Assembly (NCBI GenBank): GCA_023151275.1 | Contig: JAKLJI010000003.1 | Span: 82,357 to 146,356 of the forward strand | Origin: Bacteroidia bacterium | GTDB lineage: Bacteria; Bacteroidota; Bacteroidia; UKL13-3 | Reading direction: 5' to 3' | Length of the DNA stretch: 64,000 nt | Shown: positions 18,407 through 53,843 of the stretch, in pieces | Numbering within the stretch: the stretch's first letter is position 1 | How the letters are laid out: the number at the start of each line of letters is the position of its first letter | Notes under the pieces: generated by a model | Told to the model about the DNA's origin: nothing | Seen by the model: the letters and a program-made list of their open reading frames with translations, nothing else | Database searches by the model: none | Made by a program: the position numbers and the translations under genes

Positions 18407-18781
18407 TCAGGCTTGCAACATATCGTTTACCTTTTGCATGAGGGCTCGGGTTGAATATGGCTTTGTCATGTAATAATCAGCCCCAAACTCCATCCCTTTC
18501 TGAATATCTGCATCTTTTGATTTGGCCGATAAGAATATCACCTTGCAAGCCTTGTGTTCAACTGAATTCTTGATAAAACTGCAAATTTGATACCCATCAA
18601 TATCCGGCATCATGATATCTAAAACGGCCAAAGCCGGATTGTGCTTTTTAACGATCTCCATGGCCTCCGAACCATTTCTGGCAATAAAAACTTCGTATCC
18701 ACTTTTTCTCATCAAAAATTCCAAAGAGAGAAGGATATTAGGTTCATCATCAGCCACGAGTATCTTTTTTGCTCCATTCAT
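18407..18781 (-). CDS. Single-domain response regulator (CheY-like receiver only)
   Basis: ILVADDEPN, phospho-acceptor LDIMMPDIDG and conserved Lys in KVIFLSAKS. The protein is 124 aa with no output domain. Confidence 0.8.
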   Translation of the reverse strand: MNGAKKILVADDEPNILLSLEFLMRKSGYEVFIARNGSEAMEIVKKHNPALAVLDIMMPDIDGYQICSFIKNSVEHKACKVIFLSAKSKDADIQKGMEFGADYYMTKPYSTRALMQKVNDMLQA

Positions 18782-18798
18782 GAATTGGTCCTTTCAGC

Positions 18799-21492
18799 TT
18801 AATCTGTTATGAACAAGGTGATGACAAAGGTAGCACCTTTTCCCGGTTCACTCAAAACCTCAATGGTACCTCCATGCAATTCAACAATCTTTCTGCAAAT
18901 TGCCAGGCCCAAACCACTTCCTTTGGGCTTGCGAATGGTTTGATTTCTGGCTTGAAAAAACTTATCAAATATTAATTCCTGGTACTCCGGCTCTATGCCT
19001 CTTCCGGTGTCTTTCACAGACAAAACAACCTGATCGTCGCGACGCAAGGCACTTACTTGTATCAAACCACCTGTCTCCGTAAACTTAACGGCATTTGAAA
19101 GTAAATTAATGAGCACCTGCATCATTTTATCCTTATCCAAAATCAGGTTGAGTTGCTCGGGGTCCACATCAACCAACAGATTCAGCTTTTTCTCATCGGC
19201 TAAACTTTTGATACTGTTTATTGATTCCTGAATAAGTTCTTTTACATAAACTTCCTCCAGAAGCAGCTTTTGTTTTCCCGAATCGTATTTCTCCAAATCG
19301 AGCACCTGAGATATCAGGCGGGAAAGGCGTTCTGTTTCTTTGTTGATGATTTGAAGGTAGTGTTGTCTATCATCCAATTCAAGCTCAGGATTATCAAACA
19401 AAATCTCCGAAAATGCACGGATTGAAGTAATTGGCGTTCGCAATTCATGGGTAACTGTTGCCAGAAAATCATCCTTCAATTCATCCATTTCCTTCAGCCT
19501 ATGATTGGCAAGTTCTAACTGGCTTTTGGCTCGTTTCAACTCCCGGTTAAGCAACATCAATTGCTGTGATTCTCTGAGAATATCCATCAACTCCGCCAAT
19601 TTTACTTCCTCTTCTTTTACCACCGAAGCCACCATTATCCGCGCGGATGCCGAGCCAATAATTCCGGAAAGCACACGCTCTACATAGGCTACCAATTTGG
19701 GGTCGGCTTTCTCCTGCTCTGAACTTATTTGATTGCGTATTGAAAAATTACGAATGGCGTTCCGACTGCGTTGTTCCCCAAAGAAATTGGCCAAGAGGGA
19801 TTCCATATCAGGGATACTGGCTTGCCCCTTCCAAACCGGAGCGGCATCCATGATTTTTTCATACTTAAAAATATTCACAAAAATCTCGGCCTGATTTTGT
19901 TCTTTATCATCGGCTTTGGTATTGAGAGAAACCAGTACATACAAACCTAAATTGAAAAGCATGCTGAAGAAAAAAGCATGCGTGATTGGGCTGAAACCAG
20001 TAAAACCAAACAGTTGATTTGGCTTGAGCAATTCAATTCCCCATGGACCATATTGAACGAAATCAGATTGAATAATTCCAGATCCCACAAGGAAAGGTAA
20101 AACCAAGGTGTAAAACCAAATGGCGAATCCAGCAATCAAGCCACTTAAAGCACCCTTTTTATTTCCTTTTTTCCAGTACAAGCCACCAATAATGGCAGGT
20201 GCGAGTTGGGCTATGGAAACAAATGAAATCAAGCCCACAGAAACTAGGCTGTAATACTTACTTATGTAGTGATAATAGGCGTAAGCAACTCCCAAAATAA
20301 CCAAAATCCCCAAACGTCTTGAATTGAGCAAGAATCGACTCAAATCAAACAAGGGATTCTTTATTCGATAATCGGAACCTAGAAGCACCGGCATTGCAAT
20401 GTGATTGGAGAACATGGTGCTTAATGCTATGGTATCAACAATTATCATGCTTGTAGCAGCTGCAAAGCCACCAATAAAAACCAATAAGGCAAGTGCCTTT
20501 TGATTCATTTGCATGGGAATATCCAGGATAAAATAATCGCCATTTACACCGTTTCCGGGGAACATCATGCTACCTGAAAGCGCAATGGGCAGAACAAAAA
20601 TGTTTATCAGTAACAAGTACAAAGGAAAGAGCCAAGTGGCGTGTTTAAGGTGGCTTTCATCTGTATTTTCAACTACTGCCAGTTGAAATTGACGGGGCAA
20701 TAAAGTTGCTGCAATTCCTGAAAGCAAGGCAATCCATAACCAATCGCTGTAGCCAAACTGTTGTTGAACTACAAACAAGTTACGCAGTTCAGGAAAAACA
20801 AAGGCCCGGGAAAAGACATCGCCAAAGCCATCAAACAAAATCCAGGTGACATAAACCCCAACCGCAAGAAATGCGAACAATTTGATGATGGATTCAAAAG
20901 CAACCGCCACAACCATTCCGGTATGCTGCTCGTTGCTTTCTACCTTGCGTGTGCTGAAAACAATGGAAAATAATGCCATGCAAAGGGCCACAATTAAACC
21001 GGTATCTCCAATCAAACCGTAGGAACCCGATTTCATTTTAAAATCAGGACTTATGATTAAATCAAAGGAATCGGAAATGGCTTTTAGTTGCAGGCTGATG
21101 TTGGGAATAACACCCAAAAAACAGAGAACTGTAATGATGCTCGCCAAACTTAGGTTTTTTCCATAGCGCGATGAAATGAAGTCGGCGATGGTAGTGATGC
21201 GCTGGGTTTTGCAAATGCGGATAATTTTGCGCAATAAAAATAGCCACAAAGGCGAAATCAAAGTTGGACCAATATAAACGGCGAGAAAGCCCAAACCTTC
21301 CTTACTGGCTTTCCCTACGCTGCCGTAAAATGTCCAAGCCGTGCAGAACACAGCAAGTGAAAGGGCATAAACAACTGGCCCTTGGAAAAAGCTTCGCTTT
21401 TTTTGCTTGCTACCTTCTACCCGATAGGCAATGAAAAACAGCAAAGCCAGATAAATCAACGAAAACAAAACGATTAACCAGGAGCTGAGCAT
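18799..21492 (-). CDS. Sensor histidine kinase with N-terminal sodium:solute symporter (SSS/SLC5) domain (CbrA/CrbS-like, non-hybrid)
   Basis: About 13 TM helices of SSS type over ~520 aa, then a coiled linker, the H-box THELRTPITSIRAFSEIL, and HATPase N/G boxes LLSNAVKF...GSGLGLAICRKIVELHGG. No C-terminal receiver domain. Confidence 0.75.
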   Translation of the reverse strand: MLSSWLIVLFSLIYLALLFFIAYRVEGSKQKKRSFFQGPVVYALSLAVFCTAWTFYGSVGKASKEGLGFLAVYIGPTLISPLWLFLLRKIIRICKTQRITTIADFISSRYGKNLSLASIITVLCFLGVIPNISLQLKAISDSFDLIISPDFKMKSGSYGLIGDTGLIVALCMALFSIVFSTRKVESNEQHTGMVVAVAFESIIKLFAFLAVGVYVTWILFDGFGDVFSRAFVFPELRNLFVVQQQFGYSDWLWIALLSGIAATLLPRQFQLAVVENTDESHLKHATWLFPLYLLLINIFVLPIALSGSMMFPGNGVNGDYFILDIPMQMNQKALALLVFIGGFAAATSMIIVDTIALSTMFSNHIAMPVLLGSDYRIKNPLFDLSRFLLNSRRLGILVILGVAYAYYHYISKYYSLVSVGLISFVSIAQLAPAIIGGLYWKKGNKKGALSGLIAGFAIWFYTLVLPFLVGSGIIQSDFVQYGPWGIELLKPNQLFGFTGFSPITHAFFFSMLFNLGLYVLVSLNTKADDKEQNQAEIFVNIFKYEKIMDAAPVWKGQASIPDMESLLANFFGEQRSRNAIRNFSIRNQISSEQEKADPKLVAYVERVLSGIIGSASARIMVASVVKEEEVKLAELMDILRESQQLMLLNRELKRAKSQLELANHRLKEMDELKDDFLATVTHELRTPITSIRAFSEILFDNPELELDDRQHYLQIINKETERLSRLISQVLDLEKYDSGKQKLLLEEVYVKELIQESINSIKSLADEKKLNLLVDVDPEQLNLILDKDKMMQVLINLLSNAVKFTETGGLIQVSALRRDDQVVLSVKDTGRGIEPEYQELIFDKFFQARNQTIRKPKGSGLGLAICRKIVELHGGTIEVLSEPGKGATFVITLFITD

Positions 21493-21493
21493 G

Positions 21494-21751
21494 CTATTTT
21501 TTATTTACAATTCGGTAGACTAAACCAATAAAAAACACCCATACCGAAAACACATAAATGTAAAGCACAGGTAAGCCTCCCAAGAGTTTGGCTTTATCTG
21601 CAATGCTCAACAAAGGGTAGTTCAGCAAAACGAAAAAAAAGAATGCCAGGAAACTTAATTTGGTTGATTTCATTTTCTGATTCACAGCTCCAAGATACGG
21701 ATTAACCAAAAAAGAATCGAGCTTTTGCTTTGCAAAAGCTCGATTCAACAA
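21494..21751 (-). CDS. Small 2-TM membrane protein, DUF4212-like 'symporter small subunit', translationally coupled to the SSS-kinase
   Basis: 85 aa with two hydrophobic helices; its stop lies 1 nt before the kinase ATG, matching the typical mini-ORF upstream of SSS proteins. Confidence 0.45.
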   Translation of the reverse strand: MLNRAFAKQKLDSFLVNPYLGAVNQKMKSTKLSFLAFFFFVLLNYPLLSIADKAKLLGGLPVLYIYVFSVWVFFIGLVYRIVNKK

Positions 21752-21850
21752 ATTAGAACGTATCTCAAAAAAGAATTTGGCTGCGGAGTCTTTAGTTCAA
21801 CCTATTTCACTTTTAAAAAGTGGAACCAATTCAAACTCCAAGTAGCCGCG

Positions 21851-22129
21851 CTATTCTATTTCTCTATCGTATTCTCCTTTTAAGGAATAATAACCAAAGA
21901 TGATTAACCCAAAGGCGATTGGAAGGAAAATTCCGATAATAATTCCCCATTGCAATTGGATATTCAGCTTAGCCGCTTCTGCTGTTGATCGTGCCAACTC
22001 ATCTACAGCTTGTTCAATGCGTAGATTGGAGGCTGAGATTTTATCAGCGGCTTGAACAAACATAAATATTGCTGCTGCAGGACCTAATAAAATCCAGATA
22101 ATTCCTAATGCTCTGCGTATAGTATTCAT
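21851..22129 (-). CDS. Small membrane protein (2 TM flanking a helical segment), unknown function
   Basis: 92-aa ORF packed between the MFS gene and the DUF4212-like gene on the same strand. Confidence 0.35.
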   Translation of the reverse strand: MNTIRRALGIIWILLGPAAAIFMFVQAADKISASNLRIEQAVDELARSTAEAAKLNIQLQWGIIIGIFLPIAFGLIIFGYYSLKGEYDREIE

Positions 22130-22149
22130 AAGTTTTCTATTTAATCGTT

Positions 22150-23883
22150 TTAATTGTGGATATACTCGTTCTCATCATCCATTACATCTTCATCTATGTG
22201 ATTAGTGAGGTATAAAGTACCAATAACAAGACAAACGGCTGCAATACCAATTGGATACCAAAGTCCGGCCAATGGCGAACCGTTTGGCATAGCAGGAGAT
22301 TTGGTGTACTCAATAATTAAAGTAGAAAGGAATGGAACCAAACCACCAAAAACACCATTGCCAACATGATAAGGCAATGACATTGAGGTGTATCGAATAC
22401 GGGTTGGGAACAATTCAACCAAAAACGCAGCTATTGGACCATAAACCATTGTCACATAAACGATTTGGATGAACACCAGGAAAATCATGGTCCAAAACGT
22501 GTCTTTTCCAACTTTTTTCTCAACTCCAATTGCAGCCTTTTCTCCCTGATAATTCACCAACAAATTCAAGGTATCCACTTTAGCGTTTTGCAGGGCTTCT
22601 GTGGCCTGACTCTTCATCGTATAATAGGTTGGCAAACTTCCACTATCCGCACCTAAAGTAGTGCAAGCAAATACAACCTGAGCCGATTTATCTGTACTTA
22701 GATTAAGAGGTTCTGCAAGGTACAGGGTATCTGTGGTAGTGTATTTAAAAACTGCTCCGTCTGAATAGCTTGTATCTTTTTTGGAAACAATAAACAACTT
22801 CTGATTGCTTTTACTATCGGGAATAGCAGTAACAGAACGTATACCAGACTCTTCCAAAACAAGCTCATTTGACTTCAATGCGGGATTGGTATAATCAATA
22901 AACTTCTGGTAAATGGAACGATAGCTCAAAATTCCCAATAACATGCCTAGCATCATTATCCATTTGCGACCAACTCTGTCGCTCAATGCACCAAAAAGAA
23001 TAAAGAATGGAGTACCTAAAACAATGGCCCAAAGAATGATTGTCCTCGACTGTTCAAAATCAACCTTACAGGTGTTCTCAATGAAGGACTGCGCATAAAA
23101 CTGACCGGTGTACCAAATTACACCCTGTCCCATTACAGCCCCAAACAAGGCCAGTAAAACCATTTTTAAATTGGCTTTGTGGCTAAAACTTTCTTTCAAT
23201 GGATTTTTAGATGTTTTGCCTTCCTTCTTCAATTTTGCAAACAAGGGCGACTCACTCATTTTCATCCGGATATAAATAGACACGATAACCAACAAAATAG
23301 AAACCCAGAAAGGAACGCGCCAACCCCAATTGTTAAACTGGTCGATACCCAATTGATTTCTTGTAAATAAAATTACTCCAAGCGATAAGAAAAGTCCCAG
23401 GGTTGCAGTAGTTTGAATCCAGGAGGTGAAATAGCCACGTCGTTTTGCTGGAGCATGTTCGGCCACATAGGTTGCGGCCCCACCATATTCACCACCCAAG
23501 GCCAAACCTTGCACCAATCTTAAAAAGAGAACAATAAGCGGAGCAGCAACCCCAATTGTTTTATAGCCGGGTACCAAACCAATTGCAAAGGTTGAGCCTC
23601 CCATCAAAACAAGTGTCAACAAGAAAGTGAATTTCCTTCCCAGCAAATCGCCCAAGCGACCAAAAACGAGTGCTCCAAATGGCCGAACAATAAAGCCAGC
23701 TGCAAATATGGCTAGGGTTGACAACAGTGCTGCAGTTCCTTGCTCTTCCGGAAAGAATTGCTTGGAAATTAGGGTTGCCAGACTTCCAAAAATGTAGAAG
23801 TCGTACCATTCAATCAAGGTTCCTACGGAGGAGGCACCGATTACCTGGTAAATGGACGAGGGTTTGTCTTCGTTACTTTTCAT
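22150..23883 (-). CDS. MFS transporter, metabolite:H+ symporter (MHS; ProP/KgtP-like) family with ~110-aa hydrophilic central insertion
   Basis: MHS hallmark GTLIEWYDFYIFGSLA...FFP plus 12 TM; there is an unusually long soluble loop between TM6 and TM7. Confidence 0.7.
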   Translation of the reverse strand: MKSNEDKPSSIYQVIGASSVGTLIEWYDFYIFGSLATLISKQFFPEEQGTAALLSTLAIFAAGFIVRPFGALVFGRLGDLLGRKFTFLLTLVLMGGSTFAIGLVPGYKTIGVAAPLIVLFLRLVQGLALGGEYGGAATYVAEHAPAKRRGYFTSWIQTTATLGLFLSLGVILFTRNQLGIDQFNNWGWRVPFWVSILLVIVSIYIRMKMSESPLFAKLKKEGKTSKNPLKESFSHKANLKMVLLALFGAVMGQGVIWYTGQFYAQSFIENTCKVDFEQSRTIILWAIVLGTPFFILFGALSDRVGRKWIMMLGMLLGILSYRSIYQKFIDYTNPALKSNELVLEESGIRSVTAIPDSKSNQKLFIVSKKDTSYSDGAVFKYTTTDTLYLAEPLNLSTDKSAQVVFACTTLGADSGSLPTYYTMKSQATEALQNAKVDTLNLLVNYQGEKAAIGVEKKVGKDTFWTMIFLVFIQIVYVTMVYGPIAAFLVELFPTRIRYTSMSLPYHVGNGVFGGLVPFLSTLIIEYTKSPAMPNGSPLAGLWYPIGIAAVCLVIGTLYLTNHIDEDVMDDENEYIHN

Positions 23884-23898
23884 ATAGTTAAGTGTTGA

Positions 23899-25329
23899 TT
23901 ATAGGAAAATTTGAAATTGCAGCATCAACTCTCCTTTACGCTCGGAGCTGCGCATGCGGGTAGCTATTTCATAGGTTGGTCTGGAAGAATACTGGAGGGT
24001 AAATTTGGAATGGTGTCCATCCAGAAAAAAGTTTGCACCAATATCGTAATAGCTTCCTGATTCTTTAAGCGCTTCAAACTTTTTTAAGGCAAGCGATGCT
24101 ATTGGCTGAATGCGCATTTTCTTGCTAATGGTTTTTGGCAATAAAAGTCCGGCCTGGGTGTACCATATTGTGCCGGTACCCATCATGGCTCTAGCATTTC
24201 CACCACCTTCAAAAACGCGAGCTGAACTTGGAAGGTCTGTATTGGGTAATCCTTCATTCATGATTCCAATATTGCGGATATAGTTTGGTCCGAAATCATA
24301 AGCATAGAGCACAGAATAGGCTGTAACTGCCATATTTTTCTCCTTATCACCGAAAGGCAAATCGGCAAACACATCAGCTGCAAATAAATTAATTGCATGC
24401 TTTTTCAGTTTACCTGCAGCATCTTTTGATTGTGTAGCATCAGCCTGAGAATAAAAGCCGGCACCCAGATTTAAAATTCTTTTTGTACCTATATAGGTGC
24501 CTGTTCTGAAGGGTAGCAATGCCGATTCCTTCTCCAGGAAATTGTATTCAAAATAGCCTCCAAATCCCGCTTTGGAATTACCATTGTTTTCTACGGCAAC
24601 TTCTCTGGTTTCATTAAAGGCGGCAACAAAACGGGCAGTATCGGCGGCAAGCGTAGTTGCAAATGGTTTATTCACATGCATTTGATAGCGTAGTTTTCCG
24701 GCATACCCTTTTACAAACAGCCCATATTGGCGACCAAATTGGTCGGTATTTTCAATCAAAGGCCAATTAAAAATTGGAGCATCAATCATTAAAAAATTGA
24801 GCGTGCTGGCAGATGTCATGCGTGATAAGCCATGCATATAATGCAAGCCCGCACCAAGAGAAAGTGAGTAGTTATTTTTAGCTTTAGTTTCCGGGTTGAT
24901 TTCCGGAATAATGGCATATTCATTCAAGGCATCGTGAAAAAACAGTTGAGGCTTTTTGCCTTGGCCATATCCTCCGGTTCCTGCAGTACCAGAACCACCA
25001 CCATTTAAAAAGGTCTGGTTGTTAATTCCGACATGAGTAAGAATCATGTACCGAGGAGAAATTTGAGCAATAGCTAAAAAGCGAAGACGGCGACCACCAA
25101 TATCAAAGGTTTTGTCTTCGGAAACACCATTCACTAAAGTTCCCGGATTGTTTTCGATATACCTGGCCCAAATTTGGTTCCAAAAAATAAATCGAATGTA
25201 TTTGCTCTTATCTTCATTGATTCCAATTTTCAAACCGGAACCATAATCAGCTGAGCCCTGAGAGCGGCCGGGGGAGCTGATAAACAGCAAGATTGCTGAT
25301 AATACTAAAAAGGGGTAATGTTTTCTCAT
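23899..25329 (-). CDS. Putative outer-membrane beta-barrel porin
   Basis: Signal peptide, alternating amphipathic strands, Gly-rich loops and a C-terminal aromatic/hydrophobic end ...LMLQFQIFL. Confidence 0.5.
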   Translation of the reverse strand: MRKHYPFLVLSAILLFISSPGRSQGSADYGSGLKIGINEDKSKYIRFIFWNQIWARYIENNPGTLVNGVSEDKTFDIGGRRLRFLAIAQISPRYMILTHVGINNQTFLNGGGSGTAGTGGYGQGKKPQLFFHDALNEYAIIPEINPETKAKNNYSLSLGAGLHYMHGLSRMTSASTLNFLMIDAPIFNWPLIENTDQFGRQYGLFVKGYAGKLRYQMHVNKPFATTLAADTARFVAAFNETREVAVENNGNSKAGFGGYFEYNFLEKESALLPFRTGTYIGTKRILNLGAGFYSQADATQSKDAAGKLKKHAINLFAADVFADLPFGDKEKNMAVTAYSVLYAYDFGPNYIRNIGIMNEGLPNTDLPSSARVFEGGGNARAMMGTGTIWYTQAGLLLPKTISKKMRIQPIASLALKKFEALKESGSYYDIGANFFLDGHHSKFTLQYSSRPTYEIATRMRSSERKGELMLQFQIFL

Positions 25330-25434: not shown

Positions 25435-25857
25435 CTAATCCCTGAATCGTTCCCATTTTATCATCATAAACTTATCGCCCAATTCTGTAATAACAGAACC
25501 TGCACCCTTTAGATTATCCTTGTTCTTCATATATTCAACAAGCTCTGCATGATTCAGGATTTTGTAGGTTGGATGGTACTGCGAATTTTCAGGCCGCTTC
25601 AACCCATATTGTTTCACCCAGTTCATTACCGAAACATGGCTTGTTCCGAGGAGACGTTCAATTTCCCGATAACTCAATCCTTCAATATAAAGCTGAAGAG
25701 CTTTGGTGACATAATAATTATCGATTCGCTTACCAAGTTTATTTACAGTGAAAAAGTAAGCACAGTTCTTGCATTTGTAACGTTGCCGCTCTTTCAGAAT
25801 TCCACTTTTGATGACGCTGAAACTTTGACATTTTGGACATTTCACATCGGTTGACAT
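25435..25857 (-). CDS. IS1 InsA / IS1595-type Zn-ribbon plus HTH protein, standalone (no adjacent DDE transposase)
   Basis: CPKCQS...RYKCKNC is a transposase-type zinc ribbon, followed by the InsA-like HTH LSYREIERLLGTSHVSVMNWVK and ~50 extra C-terminal residues. No InsB or DDE ORF follows. Confidence 0.5.
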   Translation of the reverse strand: MSTDVKCPKCQSFSVIKSGILKERQRYKCKNCAYFFTVNKLGKRIDNYYVTKALQLYIEGLSYREIERLLGTSHVSVMNWVKQYGLKRPENSQYHPTYKILNHAELVEYMKNKDNLKGAGSVITELGDKFMMIKWERFRD

Positions 25858-27132: not shown

Positions 27133-27474
27133 TTATCCGCCGGCTTTTTTAACCGAATAGGATTCCTTTTGGAGGTATGCGAGCAATTTATCTCTGAAGT
27201 CGCCTTGAATAAGGATTTCGCCATCCTTGGCACTTCCTCCAACACCACAATGTTTTTTGCATAAGGAGCCAAGCTCTTGCAATGCAGAATCGGGGCCCAC
27301 AAAACCAGTAATTCTTGAAACAAGCTTGCCTCCTCCTTTTCTATCCAGAAAGATTTTCAGCCGTTGTTGGTTGGGAGGCAATAACTCCTGCTCTTCTGCA
27401 TTATTCTCCTGGTATTCAAAAAAGGTATCCGTAGAATAAACTACTCCTTCCCGCTTTTTATTCTTGTTGCTCAT
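27133..27474 (-). CDS. yciH: Translation initiation factor SUI1/YciH family
   Basis: [12 protein letters not shown]...[26 protein letters not shown] matches the SUI1 fold signature. Confidence 0.7.
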
Positions 27475-27688
27475 GATCAAAACAAAAGTACACATCAAAA
27501 CGGAATCCTGCTGTTGAAATATTTAGGAATAAATGCCCTAAACAGCCCAAATAGCTAGCCGGAAAAGGATATTGAGGCGAGCAGAACTTCTAAATTGGGA
27601 AGCTTTCTATTTGTAGCAGTTTAATTTTCTTTACCCCTAAGAAACCTGACAGAAGTCAATACACCAACCGACATTTGATGGTTTTACG

Positions 27689-27704
27689 TGTGATAATTAT
27701 CACA
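27689..27704. promoter_or_regulatory. Perfect CRP-consensus palindrome TGTGATAATTATCACA (TGTGA-N6-TCACA), candidate Crp/Fnr-family site
   Basis: Read from the sequence; located 78 nt upstream of the YceI-like gene start (27782) in a 283-nt divergent intergenic region. Confidence 0.45.
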
Positions 27705-27781
27705 GGGAATATTGAGGTTTATCATAAGCGAATAAGGTCTGTGGGGATAATTTTGACATCGTATTCAAAACCCTAGAAGAC

Positions 27782-28390
27782 ATGAATTACTCAATCAAAT
27801 TTAAAAAGGCAATCAAGGTTCTCGGAGCAGGAATTATGATGATTGCACTCCTTGTATCCGCAATTAATCTCCAGGCTCAAGACAAATACAAAAGCACCGA
27901 TGCTAAAATTACCGTAAACGGAACTTCCAACATCCACGACTGGGTGATGCAAGGAGCCAACGGCAGCGTGAATGCAAGCTTTAGTTCTGAAGGAGGTAAA
28001 CTAAAAAACCTACTTTCATTGGCCTTTACCTTTCCGGTAAAAAATTTAAAATCTGAACATAAGCTAATGGATAAAAACTGCTACAATGCAATGAAAGCAG
28101 ATAAATATCCAAATGTAAGCTTTACCGGAACTTCCGCTGTAATCAAACAAAACGCCAACGGCACATACCAGATAAACTGCAAAGGCAAACTCAAAATTGC
28201 AGATGCTGTAAAAGATGTTGAATTGATTGCTATATGCACAGTTAATCCAGACAATAGCTTATCCATTACCGGAAATTTCAAACTAAAAATGACCGATTAC
28301 AATGTAGAACCCCCAAGCATTATGATGGGTAGTATTGTAACAGGTAACGATGTAAGTATCAACTATACCCTTCATTTAAACAAACAATAA
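27782..28390 (+). CDS. YceI-like family periplasmic protein
   Basis: Signal peptide plus ITVNGTSNIHDWVM, KADKYPNVSFTGTSAV, GKLKIADAVKDVEL and DYNVEPPSIMMGSIVTGNDVSINYTL, which match the YceI-like pattern. Confidence 0.6.
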   Translation: MNYSIKFKKAIKVLGAGIMMIALLVSAINLQAQDKYKSTDAKITVNGTSNIHDWVMQGANGSVNASFSSEGGKLKNLLSLAFTFPVKNLKSEHKLMDKNCYNAMKADKYPNVSFTGTSAVIKQNANGTYQINCKGKLKIADAVKDVELIAICTVNPDNSLSITGNFKLKMTDYNVEPPSIMMGSIVTGNDVSINYTLHLNKQ

Positions 28391-28432
28391 AAAAATTAAC
28401 CAGAATCTAAAATCTAAAACCCCTTTAATTGT

Positions 28433-29839
28433 ATGAAAAATTTAATCTTAAAAAGTGCAGGTCTGACAATGGCCGCCTTTCTGGGACTTTCTTCAGTAAA
28501 TGCCCAGGTCTTTAGCCAATCAGAAATGCAAAACATGCGCTCCTATGGCAAAAAAGGAATGAATGTTTTTGAACCCAAAAAAGAAACTGATACCAAGTTC
28601 GACGGAATTAAAGTTCGTTGGGGCGCTGGCTTTACACAAAGTTTCCAGGCTTTGAGTCATTCAACTGGTCTTAAAGCCGCTACAAATGCAGCAGGAAAAG
28701 ACTCTAATGCTGTTTATGGTTTATCCGCCGGTTTCAATACCGCCATGGCTAACCTGTACACAGATGTTTTACTTGCTGATGGTATTCGTTTGAACTTAAC
28801 AACTTACTTATCTGCTCGTCACCACAACGAAACATGGGTAAAAGGTGGATACATCCAGTTCGACAAATTACCCTTGAATGTTGAGTTCCTTGACAATATC
28901 ATGAAGTACACCACCATTAAAGTAGGTCATATGGAAATCAACTACGGTGATAACCACTTCAGACGTTCAGACGGTGGTCATACCTTGTACAACCCATTTG
29001 TAGAAAACTATATCCTTGATCCATTTACTACTGAAATTGGCGGTGAGATCTACGGTAACTACAAAGGTTTGATGGGTATGATTGGTGTAAGCAATGGTGA
29101 AATCAAAGGTTCTGTTGATGCATTAACTGCAACAGCTACTGACCCAACTGCTAAAAAAACTCCTGCTATCTATGGTAAATTAGCTTATGACAAAACCATG
29201 GACAATGGCTTCAGATACAGACTTGCTGCTTCAGTTTACAGCGACAAAAGCTCACAATCGAACACTTTGATGTGGGGTGACCGCACCGGTTCTAACTACT
29301 TCATGACTATGGAAAGAGCGTTCATTGGTGGTATCACTACTACTCCTAGCGGATATACTGCACAAGCTTGGTCAGGCCGTTTGAACCCTGGTATCAACGA
29401 TGAAATTCTTGCTCAACAATTCAACTTGTTCTTGAAATACAAAGGTGCTGAATTCTTCGGTACTTATGACATGGTTGAAGGCCGCAGAGCAACTGAAGTT
29501 GCAAAACGCTCCTTCAATCAAATGGCTGCTGATGTAATCTACCGCTTTGGAAAAACTGAAAACGTATTTGTTGGTGTTCGTTACAATACTGTTTCAGGTA
29601 ACCTGCCCGCTGCTGAGCAATTGAACAAAATCACCATTAACCGCACTGCAATTGGTGCCGGCTGGTTCGTAACCGATAACATCTTGTTGAAAGGTGAATA
29701 CGTAATGCAAGAGTACAAAGACTTCACTCCAATCTTAGGTGCTGCTAATGCAAACGTAACTGGTCCTGCTACTAAATCTGATATCCGTTACAACGGAAAA
29801 TTCGATGGATTTGTAATCCAGGCAACTGTTGGATTCTAA
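28433..29839 (+). CDS. Putative outer-membrane beta-barrel porin
   Basis: Signal peptide MAAFLGLSSVNAQ, amphipathic beta-strand periodicity, and a C-terminal ...FVIQATVGF ending in Phe. Confidence 0.55.
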   Translation: MKNLILKSAGLTMAAFLGLSSVNAQVFSQSEMQNMRSYGKKGMNVFEPKKETDTKFDGIKVRWGAGFTQSFQALSHSTGLKAATNAAGKDSNAVYGLSAGFNTAMANLYTDVLLADGIRLNLTTYLSARHHNETWVKGGYIQFDKLPLNVEFLDNIMKYTTIKVGHMEINYGDNHFRRSDGGHTLYNPFVENYILDPFTTEIGGEIYGNYKGLMGMIGVSNGEIKGSVDALTATATDPTAKKTPAIYGKLAYDKTMDNGFRYRLAASVYSDKSSQSNTLMWGDRTGSNYFMTMERAFIGGITTTPSGYTAQAWSGRLNPGINDEILAQQFNLFLKYKGAEFFGTYDMVEGRRATEVAKRSFNQMAADVIYRFGKTENVFVGVRYNTVSGNLPAAEQLNKITINRTAIGAGWFVTDNILLKGEYVMQEYKDFTPILGAANANVTGPATKSDIRYNGKFDGFVIQATVGF

Positions 29840-29856
29840 TTGAAAATGCTTAAATT

Positions 29857-29892
29857 AACGAGGCTATATCTCCGGATATAGCCTCGTTTTTT
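29857..29892 (+). terminator. Strong rho-independent terminator after porin gene
   Basis: AACGAGGCTATATC-TCCG-GATATAGCCTCGTT, a 14-bp perfect stem followed by TTTTTT. Confidence 0.7.
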
Positions 29893-29903
29893 ATAAAAAA
29901 CCA

Positions 29904-30533
29904 ATGACACTCATCAAACCCCTATTCGTAATTCCAATTCTTTTTGCTTCACTTGGATGGCATTCCGGTGAAAAACAAAATTATACCCAAGGCAGCAAAT
30001 GGGTTGTTCACGACAATAGCACCCTTTGCATTGATGGAAAATCAAACATCAATAAATTCAACTGTGAGGTTAAAGATTATTGCAGCTACGATACAATAGC
30101 CTTTTTGAGACCTCGTGATGGGAAAGATTATGGCTTCATTCCTATGAAGGGCTCCTTAAAAATCAATATCGAGAAATTCACCTGCCATGATTTAATCATC
30201 ACTCACGATTTTAGGAAAACCCTGAACTATAAAACTTACCCCTATATGAATGTCCAATTTTGCCATATAGAGGACTTTGACCCACACAAAGGCTCACAGG
30301 TACTAAAAGGTAGAATCCGCGTGAACCTGGCAAATAAAAGCAAGGATTACGATGTAGAACTGGTAATGGTTCAGAACGAAACCAAAAAGGTGCTGCATTT
30401 GATTGGAAACAAATCGCTTAAACTTTCTGATTTCGGTCTGAAACCGGTGAGCAAATTAGGAGGTCTAGTTAAGGTTGAAGACGAACTCCGTGTGAATTTC
30501 TTTTTGATTCTGGGCTTGATTGGCCCCTATTAG
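29904..30533 (+). CDS. YceI-like family protein, Cys/His-rich variant
   Basis: The C-terminal half matches YceI-like (YPYMNVQF, GRIRVNLANKSKDYDVEL, SDFGLKPVSKLGGLVKVEDELRVNF). It carries five Cys and several His not present in the upstream paralogue. Confidence 0.5.
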   Translation: MTLIKPLFVIPILFASLGWHSGEKQNYTQGSKWVVHDNSTLCIDGKSNINKFNCEVKDYCSYDTIAFLRPRDGKDYGFIPMKGSLKINIEKFTCHDLIITHDFRKTLNYKTYPYMNVQFCHIEDFDPHKGSQVLKGRIRVNLANKSKDYDVELVMVQNETKKVLHLIGNKSLKLSDFGLKPVSKLGGLVKVEDELRVNFFLILGLIGPY

Positions 30534-32029
30534 TAATTGTTTCTGGCACGTTTTGCCTGGGCGTTTTTCGCGCTGTAGGCAAAATAAATTACCAGACCAA
30601 TCAGCAACCAAACCAGGGCACTTAACAAGGTTGGACCTGGTAAACCAACAATCATTGCGGAACAAACCAAGATACCCAGAATTGGAACCAATGGTACCAA
30701 TGGGGTTTTGAAATTACGCTTTAGATTAGGCTCCTTTACGCGAAGAATCCAAACCGCAATACAAACCAATACAAACGCAAACAAGGTACCAATACTGGTT
30801 AAATCGCCCGCCACAGAGCCGGGAACAAAGGCTGCAAATGCACCTACAAAAACAAATAATATCAGGTTTGATTTATACGGAGTTCTAAATTTGGGATGAA
30901 CATCCGAGAAAACCTTAGGCAATAATCCATCTTTGGCCATGGAATAAAACACACGCGATTGGCCCATCAACATTACCAGGATTACCGATGAAAAGCCTGC
31001 CAAAATTGCGATAGTAATGGAGAATGCCAACCAGCTGTAACCGGGCATGTATTTTGAAATGGCATAAGCCACCGAAGCCTCTTTTCCTTCTTTCACGAAA
31101 TCAGTATAAGGTGCAACGCCAGTTAAAACGTGTGAGAACAAAATGTACAAAATGGTGCAAACAACAAGTGAACCTAAAATACCAATGGGCATATCACGTT
31201 CCGGACGTTTGGCTTCCTGAGCGGCAGTAGAAACCGCATCAAAACCAATAAAGGCAAAGAATACAATTCCAGCCCCGGTAATCACGCCACCAAATCCATG
31301 ATTCCAGAAGGTTGAATAATCGTAGAACTTTCCGTTTGGTTGAAGAGCAGGTGCAGCATCGGCAGGAATAAAGTATGGAGAATGGTTACCCGCATTGATA
31401 AAGCCCCAACCCAAGGCAATGAAAAGCAGGATAATGGCAACTTTAATAAAAACAATTACTGCATTAACAATTGCAGATTCCTGAGTTCCCTTGATAAGCA
31501 ATAGGGAAATCAACAACAAAATAACCAAAGCCGGCGCATTCATTATTCCGTGGGTGATAGAACCATCGGCATTTAAAATAGATTCAAAGGGCGAGTGCGT
31601 CCATTCATAAGGAATAGCCCCTCCCAATAGCTTATTCAAGTATTCACTCCAAGCAATAGAAACGGTGGCTGCACCTAAGGCATATTCAAGCACCAAAGCC
31701 CAACCAATGGTCCAGGCAACAAGTTCGCCCATGGTGGTGTATGCATAAGTATAAGCACTACCCGCAGCAGGAATGATGGATGCAAACTCCGCATAACATA
31801 GTCCTGCAAAAGCGCAACCCACCGCAGCAATAATAAAAGAAACAGTTACAGCAGGACCAGCATGTTCGCCGGCAGCTGCGGCAGTTCTAACAAACAAGCC
31901 TGCTCCAATAATTGCCCCAATACCCAAGGCAATAAGGTTTGCAGCTGTTAAGGTCCGTTTTAGTTGATGTCCGTCTGATGAAGCGGTCAGTAAATCTGTT
32001 AATGATTTCTTGTAAAAATAGTTCGCCAT
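30530..32029 (-). CDS. Amino acid permease (APC superfamily)
   Basis: The N-terminal LKRTLTAANLIALGIGAIIGAGLFV signature and 12-13 TM helices; start placed at MANYFYKK. Confidence 0.85.
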   Translation of the reverse strand: MANYFYKKSLTDLLTASSDGHQLKRTLTAANLIALGIGAIIGAGLFVRTAAAAGEHAGPAVTVSFIIAAVGCAFAGLCYAEFASIIPAAGSAYTYAYTTMGELVAWTIGWALVLEYALGAATVSIAWSEYLNKLLGGAIPYEWTHSPFESILNADGSITHGIMNAPALVILLLISLLLIKGTQESAIVNAVIVFIKVAIILLFIALGWGFINAGNHSPYFIPADAAPALQPNGKFYDYSTFWNHGFGGVITGAGIVFFAFIGFDAVSTAAQEAKRPERDMPIGILGSLVVCTILYILFSHVLTGVAPYTDFVKEGKEASVAYAISKYMPGYSWLAFSITIAILAGFSSVILVMLMGQSRVFYSMAKDGLLPKVFSDVHPKFRTPYKSNLILFVFVGAFAAFVPGSVAGDLTSIGTLFAFVLVCIAVWILRVKEPNLKRNFKTPLVPLVPILGILVCSAMIVGLPGPTLLSALVWLLIGLVIYFAYSAKNAQAKRARNNY

Positions 32030-32465
32030 AAATTGGATTTTCAGGTCCAATATAGGAATTCGCGTGGAGATGTAAAGTATATTTTACTTTTCCTGACTTG
32101 GAAGGCGGAAATGAAGGTAAAAAATGGTTTTTAAGCCGCAAAATTCAAACAAATAACCAAACCAAGTTTTGGGGATTAAGCCGAGGAAAATGAACTCAGG
32201 TAATTAAAGCCGGAATACGCATTTGACCATCTATTACTGCCCAAAATGCCTGTGAAATTGGGCGTAAACTCAGTTTCCCCCACTCACCATTACGGTGCAT
32301 TATGCCTTGCTCGTGAAACTGCCAATTTCTTTGGCCTTTTGGCCCTCATCACGAAGTTCAAATGCGTAATCCGGGTTAAAAAGCTGGGAGCTTGGGGCCG
32401 GAAGTAAAATATCCAAGTAAACTAATCCAATCTGGCCAAAGCAAGGAAGTTCGATGGTTAAAAAC

Positions 32466-51708: not shown

Positions 51709-52800
51709 ATGATTCTCCATCTTTGTACTATGCTGAGTAAACAATCGAGTTCCCAATCCAAACAAAAATTCGGATTCTATATCCTGGTCGTATTTGGCAT
51801 TTTCTTGTTTGTGATGCTGTATGATTACCTTACTGCATTTCTGGGCGCCTTGATATTCTATATTCTCTTCAGTCCATTAATGAACTACTTGGTTGAAAAA
51901 AGAAAATGGAAAGCTTCGTTGGCATCTATAAGTATTTTGCTCATTACCTTATTGATTGTTGTAATTCCTTCCATTCTGGTGGTGAATATGCTGTACCAAA
52001 AACTGGCCTTGGTTGTTAACGACCCCGATTCATTATTGAATGCCTTTCACACCTTCGACGATAAATTGGCGGGTTACCTGGGCCACGACTTGATAGGACC
52101 GGAACAAATTGAGACCATAAAAAAGAAAGCAGCCGAATTGCTTCCCGGCTTATTGAATCGGCTACTGAGTGTTTTCAGTTCACTGGCTATCATGTATTTT
52201 ATATTGTATTACATGCTGGTTTCCTACAAATCACTATCCCGATTTGGTTATGATTTTCTGCCTTTCAACGAGCGGGTAACCGCAATGTTTATGAAAGAGC
52301 TGTACGACATGACCATATCCAATTCCATTGCAACTCCTTTGCTGGCCATGGCGCAGGGACTGGCAGCAGGACTGGCATTTTACTTTTTAGGAATTCCGGA
52401 CGCAATTTTTTGGGGAAGTTTATGCGGGATTTTTTCGTTTATTCCTGTGGTTGGATCGGCCATCATTTGGTTGCCAGCCGCACTTTATTTATTTGCCATT
52501 GGCAAAAGCACGGAAGGAACAATCCTTACTGGATTCGGGACATTGGTAATTGCCAATATCGACAATGTGTTGCGTATGGCATTGCAAAAGCGATTTGCCG
52601 ATGTTCATCCCATTATCAGCATATTCGGAATTTTGATTGGCTTGAATTTATTTGGCATGCCCGGACTCATATTCGGGCCTTTGCTAATCTCCTATTTTGT
52701 TTTGGGCGTTCAGATTTACAGGAAGAACTATGTAATTCCCAAACCGGAACTTGAAGAAACAACAGCTGAAATTAATTCCCCTGTTGAGCCTTCAGCTTAG
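51709..52800 (+). CDS. AI-2E family transporter (PerM/UPF0118)
   Basis: About eight TM helices and the conserved C-terminal IDNVLRMALQKRFADVHPIISIFGILIGLNLFGMPGLIFGP motif. Confidence 0.65.
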   Translation: MILHLCTMLSKQSSSQSKQKFGFYILVVFGIFLFVMLYDYLTAFLGALIFYILFSPLMNYLVEKRKWKASLASISILLITLLIVVIPSILVVNMLYQKLALVVNDPDSLLNAFHTFDDKLAGYLGHDLIGPEQIETIKKKAAELLPGLLNRLLSVFSSLAIMYFILYYMLVSYKSLSRFGYDFLPFNERVTAMFMKELYDMTISNSIATPLLAMAQGLAAGLAFYFLGIPDAIFWGSLCGIFSFIPVVGSAIIWLPAALYLFAIGKSTEGTILTGFGTLVIANIDNVLRMALQKRFADVHPIISIFGILIGLNLFGMPGLIFGPLLISYFVLGVQIYRKNYVIPKPELEETTAEINSPVEPSA

Positions 52801-53785
52801 CCGCTCTTTCCTTATCGGCTTTTTTTGCAGAACCGCCGAAAACAGAAACATGCACATAGCGAGAAGGATAATCCTGAATATCTTTCAAAAGCGCTTTTAA
52901 TTCCTGGCTTGATTTATTCAGATTATCATACAATTGTGGGTCGTTAAGTAACTTACCGGCTGAACCTTCACCCCTATTCAATTTTTCGGCCAACAAACTC
53001 AATTGCAAGCTGGTTTTGTTCAAGTTTTCAACCATTTGCTTAATAGGAGCCTGAGAAAGAGAATCGCTTAACTGCCTTACATTGTGAATGCTTTTGTCGA
53101 TTTCCACATTGTTATTTCGAATATTGGAAGTAATGGATTCTAAGTTTGCGGATGTCTTCGATAACCTGGCACTTTCGGTGCGAATTAAATCATTCAGGGC
53201 AGCAGTAGCCTGATTGAGGTTGTGCATCGTTCCCGCCAAATCATTAATGCCTGAATTTAACTTCTCCGATCCTCCGGAACCTAAGACCTCATCAATTCTA
53301 CCCAAAACACGGTTCAAGCTAAGGAGAACATTCTCGGTTTTATCCTTTACCGGTTCAATCATTCCTGAAATGGATTCACCAATACCAACCTCTTGGCTTC
53401 CTTTGATGGTATCTCCCTTTTCCACTGGAATTAACAAATCAGGAACAATCAAACTAATGGCTTTTCCTCCCAATAAGTCGGTACTTACAATACGCGCCTC
53501 GGTAGATTTTGAAAGGGCAATATTTTTATCAATAATCAAGGTGGCAATAATACGGTTTGCCGAATCCGTTCTCAGGAAACCCAAGTCTTCAACCTGACCA
53601 ACCTTCAAACCCTTGTAAAAGATTGGCGTTGATTTGTTTACACCCTCAATGGTATTGTAAACTACATAATATGTATTCTGTCCACTAAAAAATTTCTTTC
53701 CACGAAGGAAATTGTATCCAAAATAAAGGGATGTAAATGATACCAGCGTAAACAGGCCAATTTTGGCTTCTCTAGGGATTTTCAA
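52772..53785 (-). CDS. MlaD/MCE-family protein
   Basis: N-terminal TM anchor, then an MCE domain (YYVVYNTIEGVNKSTPIFYKGLKVGQVED...), then a long C-terminal helical region. Confidence 0.7.
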   Translation of the reverse strand: MKIPREAKIGLFTLVSFTSLYFGYNFLRGKKFFSGQNTYYVVYNTIEGVNKSTPIFYKGLKVGQVEDLGFLRTDSANRIIATLIIDKNIALSKSTEARIVSTDLLGGKAISLIVPDLLIPVEKGDTIKGSQEVGIGESISGMIEPVKDKTENVLLSLNRVLGRIDEVLGSGGSEKLNSGINDLAGTMHNLNQATAALNDLIRTESARLSKTSANLESITSNIRNNNVEIDKSIHNVRQLSDSLSQAPIKQMVENLNKTSLQLSLLAEKLNRGEGSAGKLLNDPQLYDNLNKSSQELKALLKDIQDYPSRYVHVSVFGGSAKKADKERAAKLKAQQGN

Positions 53786-53843
53786 AGCAATTGATTTGCA
53801 TCAAAAATAGGGATTTTTTCAATAGCCAAAACCATTGGCCCTT

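Follow-up and report, generated by a model that had tools for sequence, protein, structure and literature searches.

Why does a perfect copy of a cyclic-AMP receptor protein (CRP) binding site stand upstream of an outer-membrane porin gene that is bracketed by two genes for YceI-like proteins? We examined this question in a 64,000-nucleotide stretch of DNA (the window; positions 82,357 to 146,356 of contig JAKLJI010000003.1 in the Bacteroidia bacterium assembly GCA_023151275.1), to which all coordinates below refer. Here the palindrome TGTGATAATTATCACA (27689-27704) precedes a trio made up of gene 1 (27782-28390), gene 2 (28433-29839) and gene 3 (29904-30533), all on the forward strand. An earlier note, made from the letters of this DNA, had read the palindrome as a single CRP-class operator in front of the trio. 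Our comparison with related genomes leads to a different reading: we put at about 0.6 the probability that the region comprises an activator-dependent sigma-A promoter and a three-gene envelope module of non-Bacteroidales Bacteroidota that is activated when oxygen is low. The regulatory part of this reading is well supported by the comparative evidence.

The palindrome belongs to a conserved Crp/Fnr-family motif

The palindrome TGTGATAATTATCACA matches the CRP consensus TGTGA-N6-TCACA perfectly, as had been stated, although its distance to the ATG of gene 1 is 77 nt rather than 78 nt. By itself it has no statistical weight, since only one match to TGTGATAATTATCACA was found in the window compared to 2.26 expected when up to one mismatch is allowed. 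Its significance comes from comparative data, because the motif is conserved upstream of gene-1 orthologues and lies at fixed distances from the -7 promoter box. To obtain these data, one genome per species was scanned with an alignment of the porin, yielding 80 loci from Sphingobacteriales, Chitinophagales, Cytophagales and a few metagenome-assembled genomes labelled Chlorobiota. Of these 80 species loci, 64 have the whole trio, with gene 1, the porin and gene 3 following one another on one strand; most of the exceptions are contig ends. Metagenome contigs with 63-97% porin identity showed the same arrangement, so that the trio noticed in this single genome is a conserved unit.

For motif discovery, all inverted repeats of 4 nt with gaps of 0-12 nt were enumerated in 68 non-redundant regions upstream of gene 1. 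The four top palindromes were GTGA-N6-TCAC (11 observed compared to 0.13 expected), TGAT-N4-ATCA (18 compared to 0.67), TGAC-N4-GTCA (13 compared to 0.25) and ATGA-N6-TCAT (15 compared to 0.49). These are one motif, TGAY-N4-RTCA, the core that is common to CRP and FNR boxes. Exact matches to it amounted to 47 sites in 38 of the 68 loci, often paired 22 or 44 bp apart, and over the 80 loci the motif was 14-fold denser in intergenic than in coding DNA (1.29/kb versus 0.09/kb). Neither of the two outcomes that the earlier note had named as refuting it, flanking proteins outside the YceI family or a palindrome that is unique in the genome and lacks conservation upstream of orthologues, was obtained.

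The base 5' of TGA tells CRP sites, which have G, from FNR sites, which have T. Over the 47 sites this base was A, G, T and C at frequencies of 0.31, 0.28, 0.24 and 0.17, respectively, and because the discriminating base varies, the conserved core is the part common to the Crp/Fnr family as a whole. When regions upstream of the orthologues were scanned with the CRP consensus taken literally, the outcome was mixed, and it was the de novo enumeration of palindromes that revealed the core. Among relatives with 63-97% identity in the porin or gene 3, the palindrome reads CGTGACAATTATCACA (loci L001 and L003-6), AGTGACAATAATCACA (L002) or TTTGATAATTATCACA (L008). The claim of a CRP-class operator therefore stands in part: the site is a genuine and conserved member of the Crp/Fnr family, but the assignment to CRP itself was rejected, despite the perfect match in the window, since the G of GTGA is not kept among the orthologous sites. 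In all probability the perfect CRP match is a lineage-specific accident.

These sites also bear on a classical explanation, in which cyclic AMP-CRP exerts catabolite control through this operator and the trio serves carbon-source-dependent uptake. The perfect consensus match of the window is what one would expect from it, and all regulators of the Crp/Fnr family have a cNMP-binding-like domain. However, T, A, C or G may precede TGA in the orthologues, and relatives at 87-97% protein identity (porin or gene 3) already read CGTGAC in the left half. Together with the type of regulator and of neighbouring gene described below, we consider this explanation very improbable.

Three boxes are phased with a Bacteroidota sigma-A promoter

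The window contains not a lone operator, as first described, but three boxes of which the palindrome is one. All three lie upstream of a -7 box of the Bacteroidota sigma-A type, TAATTTTG (27748-27755, + strand; consensus TAnnTTTG), which reads TATTTTTG in the orthologous locus L001 and from which a transcription start is predicted near 27760. The core box of the palindrome, TGATAATTATCA (27691-27702), has its centre 51 bp 5' of the -7 box (about -63.5). The distal box, TGACAGAAGTCA (27647-27658), is an exact TGAYNNNNRTCA match centred 95 bp 5' of the -7 box (about -107.5); it follows the same 29+22n register as the other two and is unchanged in L001, which is 87% identical. The promoter-proximal box, TGAGGTTTATCA (27713-27724), matches 7/8 core positions, has its centre 29 bp 5' of the -7 box (about -41.5) and overlaps the place of the -33 element; its counterpart at the same place in L001 is TGAGGATTGTCA. 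Accordingly, all three boxes of the window are kept in L001. An Rfam scan of 27300-30700 matched no RNA family.

To compare this layout across genomes, 48 orthologous promoters were aligned on the -7 box TAnnTTTG, and a box was counted when at least 7/8 core positions matched. Box centres were found 51 bp 5' of the -7 box in 33 of the 48 promoters, 29 bp in 21 (the window included, with its 7/8 match), 73 bp in 7 and 95 bp in 3, and any other offset was seen in 0-2 promoters each. The RTCA half-site at the 29-bp position is nearly universal. Because the DNA between the boxes cannot be aligned across promoters, the phasing reflects selection and not shared ancestry. Mapping of transcription start sites in Flavobacterium puts TAnnTTTG at -12 to -5 (PMC9723704). 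Since the -7 box has that span, distances of 29, 51, 73 and 95 bp would place the box centres at -41.5, -63.5, -85.5 and -107.5 relative to the predicted start site. The position -41.5 is the canonical class II position of CRP/FNR activators. Counted from the predicted starts, a TGA-N6-TCA site near -41.5, as in FNR/FixK-type class II promoters, is present in 21 of the 48 loci, and the orthologous promoters lack a -33 TTTG where the proximal box sits.

These distances speak to the possibility that the boxes are repressor operators or chance matches and that the trio is a constitutive housekeeping porin operon whose YceI genes are adjacent by descent only. The single palindrome of the window is indeed statistically ordinary, and the porin family is very large, with about 55% identity across orders, as for a major porin. 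However, exact quantisation at 29, 51, 73 and 95 bp over three orders with unalignable flanks excludes chance, the -41.5 centre and the missing -33 TTTG point to activation, and 64 of 80 species have retained the gene order. This explanation is accordingly a poor candidate, and activation by the array is the reading that we carry forward.

The operator thus appears to be of a known Crp/Fnr kind, the FNR/FixK class. Like the FNR/FixK/Anr class II promoters (TTGAT-N4-ATCAA at -41.5), the trio promoter has a TGA-N6-TCA core, a proximal box at about -41.5 and upstream boxes on the same helical face. It differs from them in being of the Bacteroidota sigma-A type (-7 TAnnTTTG), in the base 5' of TGA, which is not fixed, and in the arrays of 2-4 boxes at strict 22-bp spacing that trio promoters usually have.

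Exact TGAY-N4-RTCA matches number 11 in the 64-kb window compared to 4.0 expected, and all of them lie in coding sequence except those in the trio promoter, at the gene-3 start and at 53792. The match at the gene-3 start, TGACACTCATCA (29905-29916), overlaps the start codon and may be due to chance, because the region upstream of gene 3 in orthologous loci had a box in only 7 of 69 cases.

Neighbouring genes and candidate regulators suggest low oxygen as the probable signal

In related genomes the trio lies near pta-ackA, ldh, adh, acetyl-CoA hydrolase, PPDK, tandem usp, ccoG and cytochrome b561 genes, three unnamed small proteins and kinase-regulator pairs. In 42 of the 80 loci, one or more genes of the set pta, ackA, ldh, adh, usp, acetyl-CoA hydrolase, PPDK, ccoG and cytochrome b561 lie within 4 kb. 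Several of these neighbours have the box themselves. It was present upstream of ldh in 4/4 cases, of the gene for a 138-aa protein in 5/5, of the gene for a 143-aa coiled protein in 12/15 and of usp in 4/9, compared to 18% for other genes; pta had it in 8/8, in a divergent promoter region shared with gene 1. The 51-bp box geometry was also found at ldh and at the 138-aa gene. These neighbours are fermentation and stress genes and not catabolic operons, which argues against the cyclic AMP-CRP explanation.

A candidate regulator, a fusion of REC, cNMP_binding and HTH_Crp domains, is encoded near the trio in 11 of the 80 loci. Its recognition helix reads ETVSR or ETISR, which is of the FNR E--SR type and not the RE--GR of CRP, a second point against cyclic AMP-CRP, and its Crp part gave top scores to the FixK and Fnr models. 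The kinase encoded next to it has a PAS domain that matches the FixL heme domain (1DP6) with E=3e-32, and the kinase matches the NCBIfam FixL model at 2.4e-52. Pairs of a FixL-type heme-PAS kinase and a REC-Crp fusion occur in L014, L028, L035-L037, L075, L077 and L081. The fusion seems to combine the parts of FixJ and FixK in one protein. A FixLJ two-component system as such was rejected, since the partner is REC+cNMP_binding+HTH_Crp rather than a FixJ-type protein (REC plus a LuxR-type helix-turn-helix, HTH), and neither gene is in the window. In the alphaproteobacterial FixL-FixJ-FixK cascade, likewise, a heme-PAS FixL-type kinase gene can be compared with the one found here beside a gene for a FixK-like Crp/Fnr regulator; the difference is that receiver and Crp/Fnr module are joined in one polypeptide, so that the two-step cascade is apparently collapsed, and that the pair is seen in related loci only. 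The candidate shares the E--SR recognition helix with the regulators of the FNR/FixK/Anr group and differs from FNR in having a receiver domain instead of the cysteine cluster for the FNR iron-sulfur centre.

The closest precedent is the lxa regulon of the obligate aerobe Burkholderia cenocepacia, in which TGA-N6-TCA lies upstream of usp, ackA, pta, adh and cytochrome b561-type genes and which is induced by low oxygen and required for anoxic persistence (PMC3721108). The trio loci resemble it in combining this motif with usp, ackA/pta, adh and cytochrome b561-type genes; they differ in phylum, in the YceI-porin-YceI trio, which has not been reported for lxa, and in the lxa regulators, which are stand-alone Anr-like proteins of the CRP family. 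Oxygen limitation is favoured as the signal because of the fermentation and usp neighbours with a box, the FixL-type kinase, the FNR-type regulator and the lxa precedent.

Several observations weigh against this reading. About 30% of the orthologous promoters with a -7 box have no good 51-bp box, and the proximal box of the window has one core mismatch. Neither a Crp/Fnr regulator nor a FixL-type PAS was found in the 64-kb window, and the trio has no fermentation or usp genes near it there: homologues of usp, pta, ackA, ldh, adh, cytochrome b561 and the 135-, 143- and 138-aa proteins were not found in it, its trio has yciH, the ATP synthase operon and genes for cardiolipin synthase and an amino-acid permease as neighbours, and its sensor-like content amounts to a generic kinase core plus a receiver domain (18407-21492). 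Because of this, the oxygen link for the present genome rests on promoter orthology. A stand-alone Crp/Fnr protein could be the binder, since REC-Crp genes are adjacent in only 11/80 loci. In addition, heme-PAS sensors also respond to nitric oxide (NO) or carbon monoxide (CO).

The last of these points opens the way to another signal acting on the same Crp/Fnr-type array, such as NO or nitrosative stress (through HcpR-, Dnr- or NnrR-like proteins), CO, redox state, or stationary-phase or energy starvation, with the trio as a general stress envelope module. That heme-PAS domains bind NO and CO besides oxygen, that starvation, too, typically involves usp genes and a dormancy-like gene set, and that no regulator was located in the window would all agree with such a signal. 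However, NO-detoxification genes (hcp, nor, hmp) are not among the recurrent neighbours, the match of the kinase PAS is specifically to FixL, oxygen limitation is the typical setting of pta-ackA, ldh, adh and ccoG, and the lxa precedent is oxygen-controlled. We regard a signal other than oxygen as unlikely, though well ahead of the two explanations discussed above, and oxygen limitation, or the energy stress that comes with it, as the most likely one.

Four recurrent neighbours of the trio have no Pfam or NCBIfam match and are all absent from the window. The first is a hydrophobic, probably membrane, protein of about 135 aa encoded directly past gene 3 in 28 loci; the others are a helical protein of about 143 aa (16 loci), a protein of about 138 aa (6 loci) and a lipoprotein-like protein of about 197 aa. 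Examples of these recurrent neighbours are L062:5761-6189(-), L031:6368-6964(+), L074:7080-7508(+) and L032:7024-7674(-). A third YceI-like paralogue lies beside the trio at L016:2562-3170, L034:2593-3201 and L026:2851-3486, in L016 and L034 past a ccoG-like gene.

The trio encodes two YceI-family proteins and a 16-stranded porin

Gene 1 encodes an exported lipocalin-like protein of 202 aa that matches the Pfam YceI family (PF04264) with E=4.1e-11 and 43.9 bits (cut-off 23.7) over profile positions 22-148 of 150. Its N-terminus is a hydrophobic, signal-like segment ending LQA-QD, a GTSNxHDW motif is invariant in the alignment of its family, and it precedes the porin in nearly all loci.

The product of gene 2, which starts 42 nt past gene 1, has 468 aa and had no match in Pfam or NCBIfam even at E<=10. 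Its homologues number more than 6,800, mostly in Bacteroidota and mostly annotated as hypothetical or porin. The AlphaFold2 (AF2) model, of moderate confidence (pLDDT 75.9), has 16 strands, and its Foldseek matches were OmpT, PorB, Omp32 and OprO/OprP, with E down to 8e-13 and TM scores (query) of 0.46-0.53. With a signal peptide, 16 antiparallel strands in the predicted barrel, a C-terminal aromatic residue (...VGF) and likeness to solved porins, the middle gene is an outer-membrane porin, as had been proposed. It shares the 16 strands, the signal peptide and the C-terminal Phe with the trimeric porins Omp32, PorB, Vibrio cholerae OmpT and OprP/OprO; it differs from them in its larger size, its long loops and its place outside the Pfam and NCBIfam families.

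Gene 3 encodes a protein of 209 aa with the family motifs GxTNVNxFxC and FDCxNxxMTxDFRKTLK. Searched directly against Pfam and NCBIfam it had no match even at E<=10, and a word-indexed search returned 3 relatives, compared to 1,110 cluster representatives from an exhaustive HMMER search. Several lines of evidence nevertheless place it with YceI. BLASTP aligned genes 1 and 3 over the C-terminal 70 residues (8e-6), and hhalign aligned their families over 169 columns with 99.8% probability (E=1.6e-27), the GxTNVNxFxC of gene 3 falling on the invariant GTSNxHDW of gene 1. In the gene-3 family, 55 of 133 aligned members matched Pfam YceI (best E=6.7e-13). The AF2 model of gene 3 (pLDDT 89.1) had YceI-fold proteins as its top 21 PDB matches, including BcnA, Pseudomonas syringae YceI, X158, TT1927b and Escherichia coli YceI, with TM scores (target) up to 0.78. 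By whole-domain homology and by its predicted eight-stranded lipocalin-like fold, gene 3 belongs to the YceI family as a divergent paralogue, and the description of both flanking proteins as YceI-like is borne out. Genes 1 and 3 thus have the fold of E. coli YceI (1Y0G), Thermus thermophilus TT1927b (1WUB), B. cenocepacia BcnA and BcnB (5IXH and 5IXG) and Saccharophagus degradans X158 (2X32). Unlike these, two divergent paralogues here bracket a porin, and gene 3 forms a conserved-Cys-pair subfamily below the Pfam threshold. The cytochrome b561 gene beside the trio in some loci resembles the yceJ-yceI and bcnA operons.

The five cysteines of gene 3, at positions 42, 54, 60, 94 and 120, had suggested a Cys/His-rich protein that might bind a metal. 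The cysteines are present, but their conservation does not support a Cys/His metal site, and that idea was rejected. C54 is found in 130 and C94 in 129 of the 133 family sequences, C42, C60 and C120 in at most 3/133 each, and H95 in 44/133; the other His residues are variable, so that C42, C60, C120 and the histidines are lineage-specific. In two family sequences both conserved cysteines are gone together. Because only two of the five cysteines are conserved, the data suggest a structural C54-C94 disulfide in the exported protein rather than a metal site.

A hairpin with a T-run typical of intrinsic terminators (29857-29898, hairpin 29857-29888, + strand) separates the porin from gene 3. It has 14 pairs (6 GC), a 4-nt loop and the tail TTTTTATAAAA, which agrees with Rho-independent termination and with the 14-bp-stem terminator noted before. 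Spacers were compared by an explicit hairpin search, since the minimum free energy of whole spacers under-counted. An equivalent hairpin, with unrelated sequence, was present in 24 of 67 porin-to-gene-3 spacers under strict criteria, and in further ones on visual inspection, compared to 0/66 gene-1-to-porin spacers. Because of this distribution, gene 1 and the porin look like a bicistron, with gene 3 behind an attenuating terminator. No terminator-like hairpin follows gene 3 in the window, and only 4/70 orthologous loci have one there. At its stop codon gene 3 overlaps a convergently transcribed amino-acid permease gene (30530-32050, - strand) by 4 nt (30530-30533), 3' end to 3' end.

Other features of the window

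Upstream of the trio, a second and unrelated porin-like gene (23899-25329, - strand; 476 aa) had no Pfam match and a weak NCBIfam likeness to the ExtI selenite/tellurite porin (E=2e-8). It adjoins genes for a 577-aa MFS transporter, a DUF6814 protein, an 897-aa histidine kinase and a stand-alone receiver (among them 22150-23883, 18799-21492 and 18407-18781, all - strand), and the genes from 18407 to 25329 may form a separate transport and sensing cluster. A 140-aa open reading frame (ORF) at 25435-25857 (- strand) has an IS1/InsA-type zinc ribbon and HTH and matched the NCBIfam IS1 transposase model in its N-terminal part only (E=2.8e-21). It is kept in the contigs L003, L004 and L006 of about 97% identity and resembles either a remnant of an IS1-family element or a domesticated regulator.

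The intergenic motif match TGATTTGCATCA (53792-53803) lies upstream of a gene with an MlaD domain (52772-53785, - strand) and abuts a TATTTTTG -7-like box on the strand of that gene, so that it would be near +1 and not at -41.5; it could mark a repressor position or be due to chance. Two exact TGAY-N4-RTCA matches 18 bp apart (61889-61900 and 61907-61918) fall within a 987-aa ORF (60543-63506) and are part of the window-wide excess.

Proposed mechanism and significance

As we picture it, Crp/Fnr dimers of the FNR/FixK class would bind TGAY-N4-RTCA boxes that are 22 bp apart on the same face of the helix, and the proximal box would take the place of the missing -33 element and recruit RNA polymerase in the class II manner. 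The transcript would encode the exported YceI lipocalin and the 16-stranded porin; the hairpin past the porin would stop most transcripts, and read-through would yield gene 3 at a lower dose, its product probably held by the C54-C94 disulfide. As a working guess, drawn from the protein folds, the trio would serve to remodel outer-membrane permeability under hypoxia and to carry a hydrophobic isoprenoid, quinone or lipid ligand in the periplasm.

A search of the literature on the trio, on YceI together with low oxygen, and on FixL or Crp/Fnr in Bacteroidota found no description of this system. Three features appear to be new: arrays that keep a strict 22-bp spacing on a sigma-A promoter of Bacteroidota, the apparent union of FixJ and FixK in a single REC-Crp protein beside a FixL-like kinase, and the phylum-wide YceI-porin-YceI target. 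A bolder proposal, which we advance tentatively and think rather doubtful as a whole, is a phylum-specific low-oxygen regulon of aerobic soil and freshwater Bacteroidota in which a FixL-type heme kinase and a FixJ-FixK hybrid act on 22-bp arrays, the trio being its most widely conserved envelope target and a dedicated path through outer membrane and periplasm for a hydrophobic ligand, redox-active or lipid, as in a shuttle of the menaquinone or isoprenoid type, once oxygen is exhausted.

The responses of aerobic Bacteroidota (Sphingobacteriales, Chitinophagales and Cytophagales) to oxygen limitation are almost unstudied, and the physiological role of YceI is still unclear despite many crystal structures. 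The comparison provides a regulon signature, TGAY-N4-RTCA at 29+22n bp from TAnnTTTG; candidates for the sensor (the FixL-like kinase) and the regulator (the REC-Crp/Fnr fusion); and a strongly conserved target operon with two YceI paralogues and a porin family that Pfam does not include. Should the oxygen link hold, YceI proteins and an unclassified major porin would be tied to hypoxic survival, and a low-oxygen regulon of this kind would for the first time set the YceI family in a physiological context.

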